DNA of 64,000 nucleotides from Octopus vulgaris (Eukaryota). The DNA lies in contig OX597837.1 of the NCBI GenBank assembly GCA_951406725.2, forward strand, positions 45,136,001 to 45,200,000, read 5' to 3'. The notes under the pieces were generated by a model. The model searched no databases, was not told where the DNA came from, and saw only the letters and a list, made by a program, of their open reading frames with translations. A program made the position numbers and the translations under genes. Below, in pieces: positions 2,721 through 60,188 of the stretch (the first letter of the stretch is position 1; every line of letters begins with the position of its first letter).

Positions 2721-3101
2721 TCTTCTTCTGCTGCTGCTGCTGCTGCTATCAATGTTATGTCGGTAGTGACGGCGATTTTTTGTTATGGTTCTTGTACATC
2801 TCTTACGATTTAACTCAGAGTCAGCTTTGAGCAGGTAGACTTATGATTAAAGGTCCCTCCGTCCGGTGTTACCTCGGTGGTTTATCATTGTTTTTATATT
2901 TTTTATCAACAAACATAATAGCGACAGGTAGCTGTGGCTGTGTAGCTAACATGTGTTAGGGTTCAGTCTCACTACGTGACATTTTGGGCCGGTATCTTAT
3001 ACTATAGCCACGGGCCGGCCAAAGCCTTGCTGATTTGGTAGCGGAAAAATATGCGGTAGCCCGTGGTATATACAAACACACACACACAGATATGGGTGTA
3101 T

Positions 3102-3263
3102 AGGCGCAGGCATGGTTATGCAGTAAGAAGTTTGCTCCCCTACTACATGGTTCTGGGTTCAGTCCCACTGCTTGGCACCTTGGACAAGTGTCTTCTACTA
3201 TAGCCTCAGACCAGCCAAAGCCTTGTAAGTGGATCTGGTAGACAGAAACTGAAAGAAGCCCCT

Positions 3264-56960: not shown

Positions 56961-57529
56961 GGGCGTCTCACGAAAATTTACTGCCGAAAAGGCGGAAAAA
57001 AGATAGGTGCGTAACGTTACATTGAATTAATAAGTTTTCGACTTCGAGTTTTCGGCTAGCTAAGTTATCGTCGAACTGCCAAAACTTCGAAGTCACAGTC
57101 ATCATTCTTGTTTGAGAATAATAAATTGAGGAATTTGTTTTGCAAGATTCTTGATGTGAAATAGTGTGTTGAAACAGATATTGTTGTATTTCGGGTGTGG
57201 TCGTTTATTCTTCCTTGCCAAATAAACAAACGCACCATATATCCTTTCTTCATTCGCTTGCTAATGTTTTTATTTTATCTTACGTCCATTGTCTGAAAAT
57301 CATTCGTCACACATCTGTGACCGCTTCCCAAATAAACACACGCGCAGACAATGGACATAAAATATATATATAAGAACAATAACAAACGAGTGAAGAACGA
57401 GTATATAGTGCGTGTGTCTATTTGGCAAGAAAAAAATGACCAATCCGAAAGATAACATTAATACATTTGTACCCTAGTATAGAATAGCCCATCAGATTAT
57501 TATAAATCAACATAAAAACACATATAGAC

Positions 57530-58713: not shown

Positions 58714-59134
58714 ACTTTATATATTATACATACATACATACATACAGAATGAGACGGTGATAGAGAGACCGAGAGATATAGATATAGATAAAAATATGAA
58801 TATATACATATGAATATATATTTATGGAATTACATACTTAAACGCTCATATATCGACATACATATGAATTTCTCTCTCTCTCTCTATCTATCTTTCTATA
58901 TATGTGTCTAACTTGCTTGCATATATGCATATATGGATACAGTATGTATATGCATATATATATATATATATATATAACTTACATTCACTCGTCTACCGGC
59001 TCAAGTTCAAATTTCGTCAGCACTCCGAAATGTATTCTATGTAGAGAACAGCTGTCTCTAACCAATATTTATGTATGCGTGTGTGTGTTTGTATGATGTA
59101 TACATCTACATACACATATATATACATACACACG

Positions 59135-59504
59135 TAAATTAAGAAATGAGTTAAACGCAGGTGTTATTCAAATCTTTATATTTCCAACATATGTTTCGAA
59201 GAAAACATTGGTATTATTTTTGAGGAAATAAAATGATGTAAAACAATGTAACCAATGTAATCATCTCGTCAGGGGAAAAAGAAACAAAACACATCAATAA
59301 GCCATTTTAACTGAATCGTTTTAACCGAATTGGTTAAAATGGCTTATTGGATTGTTTTGATCCTCTTTTTCCCCTGACGAGATGATTACATTGGTTACAT
59401 TGCTTTGCATCATTTTATTCCCTCAAGAATAATACCAATGTTTTCTTCGAAACATATGTCGGAAGTATAAATAATACCTGCGTTTAACTCCATTTCTTAA
59501 TTTA
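59135..59504. mobile_element. ~370-bp palindromic element carrying an HHR core on each strand
   Basis: Arms are reverse complements about a centre near 59320. Plus: CTGACGA (59374)..GAAA-C-ATAT-G-TC (59449-59460). Minus: CTGACGA (59272-59266)..GAAA-C-ATAT-G-TT. Confidence 0.88.
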
Positions 59505-59515
59505 TCTAGTTATGA

Positions 59516-59704
59516 ATGCGGCAAGCTGGTAGAAAAGTTAGCACGCGGGGCGAAATTCTTAGCAGTATTTCGTCTGTCTTTACGTTCTGAGTTCAAATTC
59601 CGCCGAAGTCGACTTTGCATTTCATCCTTTCGGGATCGATAAATTAAGTACCAGTTGCATACTGGGGTCTAGCTAATCGACTTCCTCCTCCACTAAAATT
59701 TCGG
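59516..59704 (+). mobile_element. SINE family A, alternative tail, 3'-truncated
   Basis: Matches the consensus. Confidence 0.88.
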
Positions 59705-59884
59705 GATGGTTTTATATTTACAGATTTTTTATTAATGTCACAATGTTTTTATAGATCATATATCAGCGCTTGCATCTACTCTAATAGAAATCTGGAGAGT
59801 CTACTATAGTAGATGCAAGCGCTAATATATAATTTATAAAAACATGCTACATATTAATAAAAATCTGTAAATATAAAACCATCC
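59704..59884. repeat. ~180-bp inverted repeat
   Basis: GGATGGTTTTATATTTACAGATTTTT versus AAAAATCTGTAAATATAAAACCATCC; AGCGCTTGCATCTACT versus AGTAGATGCAAGCGCT. Confidence 0.93.
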
Positions 59885-60188
59885 AGATTTCTGACTACAT
59901 TATTTCTTGTAATATATAATACCTATACATCACCTCCAAACGTTCTAATATATATATATATATATATATATACATACACACGAACACACACATATTCACA
60001 TAGGTATATATGAATTAAAGTTGAAAATGATAAAGCATTACAGTTTTACTGTAGTTTCATCTGTCGAGTCTTCGGAAGAGTAATATCGTCGACGAAATAC
60101 TTGTTAAAGTCATTGCATAAATGTAATAGAGAATGCTAATAGAGAATGGAAAAGTAAGAGAGAACTGTGTAAATGTAGATGTAAGTAT

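Follow-up and report, generated by a model that had tools for sequence, protein, structure and literature searches.

The Hydra-clade, C-terminal EN+ Penelope-like elements (PLEs) described by Craig et al. 2021 (PMC8557442), of which Penelope-13_HM and Hydra-1_Obim are examples, are the closest described systems to the locus analysed here. Penelope-13_HM is listed in the supplement of that paper with a 5′-truncated inverted copy and with hammerheads on both strands. Inverted, 5′-truncated pLTRs with a tail on one side only have been published for Pen2a_Av of Adineta (PMC3846280) and are described in the Fig. 2 legend of PMC8557442, and in Schistosoma mansoni dual PLE hammerhead motifs occur on opposite strands at a spacing of 100–700 bp (Cervera and de la Pena 2014, PMC4209133). 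For Poseidon_Ac, both target strands are cleaved and extended in vitro, two RT start sites define the tail, and hammerhead cleavage is unnecessary (Frangieh et al. 2024, PMC11167929). A sequence-only reading of the present locus had put it forward as the best candidate for an undescribed system; it is not a new system. Both inverted pLTRs and opposite-strand hammerheads are known from earlier publications on PLEs, among them one on an element of the Hydra clade. In literature searches that miss Repbase and most subscription papers, PMC8557442 was the sole relevant find on octopus Penelope hammerheads, and the literature from 2021 onwards on the Hydra clade, microsatellites and zinc fingers yielded nothing new.

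The locus is a palindrome of approximately 370 bp at positions 59135–59504 of a 64-kb stretch of Octopus vulgaris DNA (the window). With high confidence, it is interpreted as two 5′-truncated ends of one Hydra-type PLE, placed head to head, each with its own pLTR hammerhead, which likely arose in a single insertion and are decaying at the background rate. The inverted-repeat arms span 59135–59311 and 59333–59504, with a centre of 21 bp and no open reading frame (ORF) between them. They differ by 11 substitutions over 169 aligned bases plus a few small indels, and the right arm additionally carries an 8-bp deletion 3′ of the hammerhead. Aligned with the family, the left arm (59135–59316, minus strand) is a 5′-truncated pLTR/3′ end covering family positions −176 to 0, the short end of which adjoins a CA/TA microsatellite; the GT/CA/TA microsatellite flank read from the sequence at 59063–59134 is likely the target site of the insertion. 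The right arm (59333–59504, plus strand) is a 5′-truncated pLTR/3′ end of the same PLE subfamily, covering positions −171 to 0. The head-to-head junction (59305–59332) lies near family position −180 and contains a doubled 12-bp stretch (59305–59316 and 59319–59330), suggesting stuttered re-priming; a like stutter is seen at the junction of another family locus, L004.

The right arm is followed by a tail remnant (59505–59513, plus strand) that preserves ~10 nt from the start of the ~155-nt family tail; the remainder is missing, and no convincing remnant of it was found elsewhere in the 64-kb window. At the tail position lies a high-copy SINE-like repeat (59510–59703, plus strand), which lacks ~25 bp of the 3′ end present in other copies and abuts a second palindromic repeat at 59701. 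The SINE insertion and a later deletion likely account for the loss of the tail; one such deletion would explain why the SINE lacks its end, the tail most of its length and the neighbouring repeat its left part. This second repeat (59701–59917) is unrelated and without a hammerhead core, and the window copy is missing its left ~27 bp. A genome search biased to the query length returned 972 candidates for it, and at the 11 loci viewed (two of which are second views of one place) its symmetric ends lie in (TA)n; the repeat may represent either a genuine MITE or a further inverted PLE end. At one family locus (L027), an arm is fused directly, just upstream of position 3171, to half of a repeat of this type. 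Self-comparison of the window shows more long inverted repeats, at 45617–46471, 13492–13883, 216–520 and 57179–57460.

Long inverted repeats are a known artefact of long-read sequencing. An assembly artefact from a fold-back chimeric read is nevertheless extremely improbable here, given the ~9% divergence and the indels between the arms and the dozens of other pairs with comparable divergence. Among the contigs of four sequencing runs the matches were short family pieces only, none of them spanning the locus.

Each strand of the palindrome carries one CUGACGA…GAAA-C-AUAU-G-U-H motif, and the two motifs point outward. The plus-strand type I hammerhead motif occupies 59367–59466, with CUGACGA at 59374–59380, GAAA at 59449–59452 and the triplet GUC, of which C17 is 59460. 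Its minus-strand counterpart (59180–59279), in which CUGACGA starts at 59272, has a ~58-nt helix II, a palindromic helix III and the triplet GUU, with U17 at 59186. The presence of a hammerhead core on each strand of a ~370-bp palindrome, as previously read from the sequence, is thereby confirmed by alignment, folding and motif positions, as is the assignment of UC to the plus and UU to the minus strand. Neither arm matched the Rfam hammerhead models, the Rfam matches listed being of the microsatellite or long-hairpin kind and below gathering scores; what supports the hammerhead call is the sequence pattern, the folding and the comparison within the family. U17 on the minus strand reflects a C-to-T substitution in the family GUC, at a CpG, and across 117 arms position 17 is C in 102, T in 13 and G in 2.

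The long stem II that had been described, CATTGG/CCAATG, does pair, though it is just the distal part of the ~58-nt helix II, and its sixth pair derives from a 9-bp tandem duplication private to the two window arms. A 19-mer across the duplication (59244–59262, minus strand, in the left arm; 59384–59402, plus strand, in the right arm, where it covers the second copy) has two exact matches in 2.8 Gb, both inside the window palindrome. Similarly, the short CC/GG stem I is present as a 2-bp, weakened form of a helix I that has 5–6 bp and further extensions in the family consensuses. All four subfamily consensuses adopt the type I hammerhead fold within 1–3 kcal/mol of the minimum, with helix I extended in three segments. 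The cost of reaching the hammerhead fold is 3.8 kcal/mol for the family consensus and 9.7 and 7.3 kcal/mol for the window arms, which are also weaker than the consensus by a helix I C–A mismatch and one GUU triplet. Elsewhere in the window there are further hammerhead-like core words (CUGAnGA), such as a CUGACGA at 20655 (minus strand) with a short stem close by and GAAAC.

The octopus motifs share with the minimal hammerheads of PLEs (PMC4209133) a type I core, the G10.1–C11.1 pair, an enlarged helix II, a short helix III with a palindromic loop and the occurrence of opposite-strand motifs at short range; they differ in a much longer helix II and in the three-segment extension of helix I. Against the ~58 nt of the octopus family, helix II measures about 10–25 nt in the Hydra hammerheads listed in PMC8557442, and the octopus hammerhead sequence differs from that given for Hydra-1_Obim, which marks a different family.

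The palindrome is predicted to fold at −234.8 (plus) and −229.7 (minus) kcal/mol, compared with −63.4 ± 4.5 kcal/mol for 30 dinucleotide shuffles, in line with the rod-like fold expected of its transcript. Within the full-length transcript, the hammerhead fold would cost ~120–128 kcal/mol; silencing of the ribozyme there is, on these folding energies, a by-product of geometry. The predicted ribozyme likely works in the tandem transcript of an active element and not in the window copy. Viroid-like RNAs (PMC10162972) likewise have hammerheads in both polarities and fold into rods. The analogy drawn earlier is superficial, because what forms the second hammerhead in the palindrome is the first one in reverse complement, as integrated DNA. 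Non-LTR retrozymes (bioRxiv 10.64898/2026.07.22.740005) likewise derive from pLTRs. Unlike viroid-like RNAs and retrozymes, the octopus family obtains its second ribozyme as an inverted DNA copy and shows no tandem array or recurring monomer. Classification as a non-LTR retrozyme was rejected on the grounds that the arms are inverted and that the single copies have variable 5′ ends running into the ORF.

The two hammerheads had also been viewed as a possible self-silenced ribozyme switch, with core decay at the neutral rate named among the marks of an ordinary inverted PLE end. Neutral decay is what the family displays: mismatches affect 55/1008 of the core (5.5%, ten non-CpG positions) and 562/10646 of the non-core, non-polymorphic positions (5.3%; P = 0.83), and in two-armed copies taken separately the counts are 34/519 and 290/5393 (P = 0.27). 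Cores are intact in 18 of 46 arms of two-armed copies and in 19 of 40 single arms (P = 0.51). Retention of the window copy by selection, as a self-silenced switch or as a source of hairpin RNA or siRNA, has in its favour that both cores match the catalytic consensus and that a read-through transcript would form a duplex of ~170 bp. We regard it as highly improbable, given that pairs with two intact cores number 3 of 18, where ~2.8 are expected from 39% per arm, that both window arms fall below the family consensus in the folding cost, helix I pairing and triplet given above, and that their divergence is average (12/131, 9.2%, compared with 262/2604, 10.1%, between arms across the family). The 11 arm mismatches likewise favour neither strand's duplex, five giving G–U pairs on the plus strand, three on the minus strand and three on neither. 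Gene conversion keeping the arms alike was considered and rejected, as the 262 arm-to-arm differences match the sum for independent copies, namely 334 less 2 × 32 that are shared. The four subfamily consensuses, in contrast, retain a complete hammerhead fold, and the 23 polymorphic sites of the family include N7 and no site of the 11 in the core (not significant alone); this pattern suggests that the hammerhead is under selection in active lineages and that inserted copies are under none.

The parent element was located by searching the octopus's own 2.8-Gb genome, which returned 2158 candidates; the 40 that were scored comprise palindromes, single arms and long-spacer pairs. Upstream, single-arm copies run on into pieces of an ORF that contain RT and GIY-YIG-type motifs, and the PLE origin proposed from the sequence is accordingly supported. 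Aligned with full-length homologues, the natural ORF fragments and the family consensus show the RT followed by a C-terminal YIG…R…E…N domain; the protein consensus contains two frameshifts in its low-depth 5′ part. A 346-residue natural RT fragment matches 82 proteins of 607–759 residues at E ≤ 1e-10, and its sole species-named match, in Argonauta hians, would fit a cephalopod host. Pfam matches are weak: RVT_1 at E = 0.022 on the natural ORF fragments, and GIY-YIG at E = 0.0023, solely on one homologue (P0003). At three loci (L124, L134 and L196), a direct upstream pLTR continues through the tail to the ORF start, forming a partial tandem; the tandems of L124 and L134 give a unit length of ~3.0 kb, borderline with respect to the <3 kb of the Hydra clade. 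The hammerhead ends ~270 nt ahead of the ATG, at variance with Poseidon_Ac, in which it overlaps the ORF start (PMC11167929). The family thus combines the features of EN+ PLEs: an ORF with RT and GIY-YIG, pLTR tandems, 5′ truncation and inverted copies, a one-sided tail and a pLTR hammerhead. At one further locus (L006, about 1150–1500 and 2851–3000), a piece of a different GIY-YIG-type ORF directly follows the family tail, with a third copy of the arm at a distance of 1 kb; the arrangement possibly represents nested PLE insertions.

Within EN+ PLEs, the family resembles the Hydra clade (PMC8557442) in its ~3-kb length, the order of RT and C-terminal GIY-YIG, the DKT and CxxC/CxH motifs and the absence of CCHH, and also in a canonical hammerhead in the 3′ end and insertion beside TA-rich microsatellites. 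The DKT motif occurs as SDKTG in the natural copies L110 and L132, and CxxC..E and N…CKH surround the endonuclease in the alignment. The family departs from the clade as published in two motifs. RWK reads RWL, while RW[KR] occurs in the first 80 residues of 57 of the 82 homologues. Across all reading frames of the linker window, none of 39 natural copies has the CxCX5C linker, compared with CxCx4-7C in 77 of the 82 homologues; in all 39 copies an Asn-rich sequence takes the place of this zinc finger (for example, L124:4428–5261 on the plus strand and L110:1711–2172 on the minus strand). An Asn-rich spacer between the RT and endonuclease also occurs in some Adineta elements (PMC3846280). Because the CxCX5C linker is absent, the family is filed as Hydra-like with a lost linker rather than as a typical member. 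Judged from sequence motifs, the parent is probably a Hydra-type PLE family. To our knowledge, as far as the search extended, this Hydra-like family was previously unlisted; the inverted-end structure itself is known. A simple repeat follows 72 of 96 ends (95 sampled copies and the right arm in the window), compared with a background of 9%, and part of this flanking could be slippage from the element's own ends.

An unbiased sample of the family was drawn with a 19-mer outside the hammerhead, which has 527 exact matches in the genome (reversed control, 0). The first 100 of these, on three contigs, gave 99 regions, a sample in which two-armed insertions are counted twice as often. Locus L181 (no alignment), the misprojected arm L162_2, pairs with fewer than 80 aligned sites, the duplicate loci L009, L013 and L018, and the five loci common to this and a similarity-picked sample were dropped before the respective counts. 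The 3′ ends of the 99 regions fall at a short site in 36, at a long site in 60 and between the two in 3, the long end lying ~155–160 nt beyond the short one (for example, L002, L012 and L033); this extension is the tail. Among 98 classified regions, 50 are single-armed. An inverted piece is adjacent in the other 48: in 37 it makes up a complete head-to-head pair, and in 11 it is partial. Every complete pair (37/37) combines one short with one long end (binomial P = 1.5e-11). Truncation varies widely, from −2066 to −21 for short arms and from −1176 to +97 for long arms. In the similarity-picked set there are 20 short + long pairs and a single short + short pair, which is the window; this exception among 21 counts against our interpretation of the locus, for which the likely loss of the tail is the explanation offered.

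Mobilisation of the palindrome as a hairpin unit had been proposed, with genome-wide recurrence at the same centre and ends as the check. Movement of the 370 bp as a whole, as a non-autonomous MITE-like unit or a retrozyme-like hairpin RNA, gained some credit from an initial search that recovered roughly twelve palindromes close to it in size and sharing its outer ends, a search that was biased by its query, and from a slight excess of window-like pairs in the sample (4/37, with 1.3 expected; P = 0.015). The sample otherwise contradicts it. About half of the regions are single-armed, and the positions of the joins vary between the tail itself and a point 2 kb upstream. Each of 52 distinct pairs has a junction sequence of its own (two lie within 4 nt of each other and differ in sequence), and the private duplication has no second locus. 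Pairs are asymmetric, with a one-sided tail, and belong to four subfamilies. Nor do the 5′ ends peak at −165 to −190, and a fixed RNA start near −180 is not apparent, 20-nt bins from −220 to −140 holding 8, 8, 9, 4 and 8 ends; at the hammerhead cut, too, no peak was seen (3 of 135 ends at −56 to −46, compared with 13 in 42 flanking positions). The same ends together with the same centre were not found in many copies, MITE status is therefore rejected, and we consider movement as a unit very unlikely. With half of the copies single-armed, widely ranging joins and neutrally decaying cores, the family behaves as the sequence-only reading had said an ordinary inverted PLE end would.

Subfamily membership agrees between the two arms of 18 of 19 pairs, compared with ~26% expected, and four subfamilies are represented. 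Together with the duplication private to the window arms, this indicates that both arms derive from one source. One subfamily (cluster 3; for example, L150, L152, L153 and L158) is the least diverged, at 4.4%, and has 3 of 20 arms in two-armed insertions, compared with 45 of 75 in the other subfamilies, counts in which arms are not independent; its variant of the helix III loop keeps self-complementarity via G–U pairs. At another locus (L030:3001–4295), a two-armed insertion is tandemly duplicated with a period of 855 bp.

In L1 twin priming, two nicks in the target prime two cDNAs, which are joined into an inverted insertion whose parts come from successive, mostly non-overlapping stretches of the RNA. 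The octopus pairs resemble this process (PMC2837659) in that two primed cDNAs appear to be joined as an inverted insertion; they differ in that both arms repeat the same 3′ region, starting at two fixed sites. No related literature on twin priming in PLEs was found within the scope covered, to which most subscription papers do not belong. A comparable published type is that of Adineta Pen2a_Av (PMC3846280), which likewise has a head-to-head inverted pLTR, a one-sided tail and palindromic junctions, and the model behind the short + long rule is Poseidon_Ac (PMC11167929), which belongs to another clade and has 30–40 nt between its start sites. The octopus tail of ~155–160 nt is four to five times longer than the 30–40 bp published.

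We lean, with moderate confidence, towards a double-priming mechanism for the inverted pair. The endonuclease would nick both strands of a TA-rich microsatellite. From one nick, reverse transcription would begin at the outer start site and from the other at the inner one, with a single RNA or source element as the template for both. The two cDNAs would stop early, and joining of their 3′ ends through microhomology, favoured by pLTR hairpins, would leave an inverted pair in which just one side has a tail. In the window, both cDNAs would have stopped near −180, just upstream of the hammerhead, which is why both cores are included. At ~20 of the 37 junctions the two alignments overlap; this is suggestive only, since BLAST over-extends, and target-site duplications are unreadable because the flanks are microsatellites. 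A broader proposition is held tentatively, at somewhat less than even confidence: that every two-armed insertion pairs an inner-site cDNA with one begun ~155 nt further out on one template, double priming being obligatory, and that the family reached microsatellites without the linker zinc finger.

Alternatively, the parent element may be the same and only the origin of the mirror half different: one cDNA may have folded back and been extended by self-primed copy-back, or an antisense template may have supplied the second arm. Self-priming has been proposed for inverted copies (PMC3846280), and an antisense template was the proposal of Arkhipova et al. 2013. Near-symmetric joins are in excess (13/37, with 4.4 expected by permutation; P = 0.00025), as copy-back would predict; they occur at many different positions, several of them on local hairpins or palindromes of the pLTR. 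The placement of joins thus departs from full randomness, and a share of them may stem from copy-back. The stuttered junctions of the window and L004 point the same way, as does the private 9-bp duplication common to both window arms, although a shared variant is equally expected when one RNA is copied twice. Copy-back gives no reason for a stop at the fixed inner site, and the tail cannot derive from the tailless arm as a template. Moreover, the tailless arm often extends far longer in the 5′ direction than the tailed one (−2066/−115, −1882/−42 and −1627/−291). Copy-back may thus explain some symmetric pairs and not those with a much longer tailless arm, and as an account of the inverted pair it seems to us unlikely, though worth retaining.

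The family bears on two matters counted among the unsolved ones by Craig et al. 2021 (PMC8557442), the formation of tandem and inverted structures and the bias of insertion towards microsatellites. The ~155-nt tail, a counted short + long rule and the linker loss were not found in the literature searched, a scope that excludes Repbase and subscription journals. The strict short + long rule (37/37) and the shared private duplication constrain models of integration, and the long tail allows the two ends to be told apart easily. The linker zinc finger was proposed to direct PLEs to (TA)n; its loss with continued microsatellite flanking argues against a linker requirement, unless another family's protein mobilised the copies. 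If double priming is indeed obligatory and microsatellites were reached without the linker zinc finger, the family would offer a natural experiment on inverted-pLTR formation and target selection. The window locus itself is an ordinary decaying transposon footprint and not a new ribozyme system, and for genome scans it carries the lesson that PLE insertion routinely produces hammerheads on both strands within a rod-like fold, a combination that is no sign of viroid-like RNAs.
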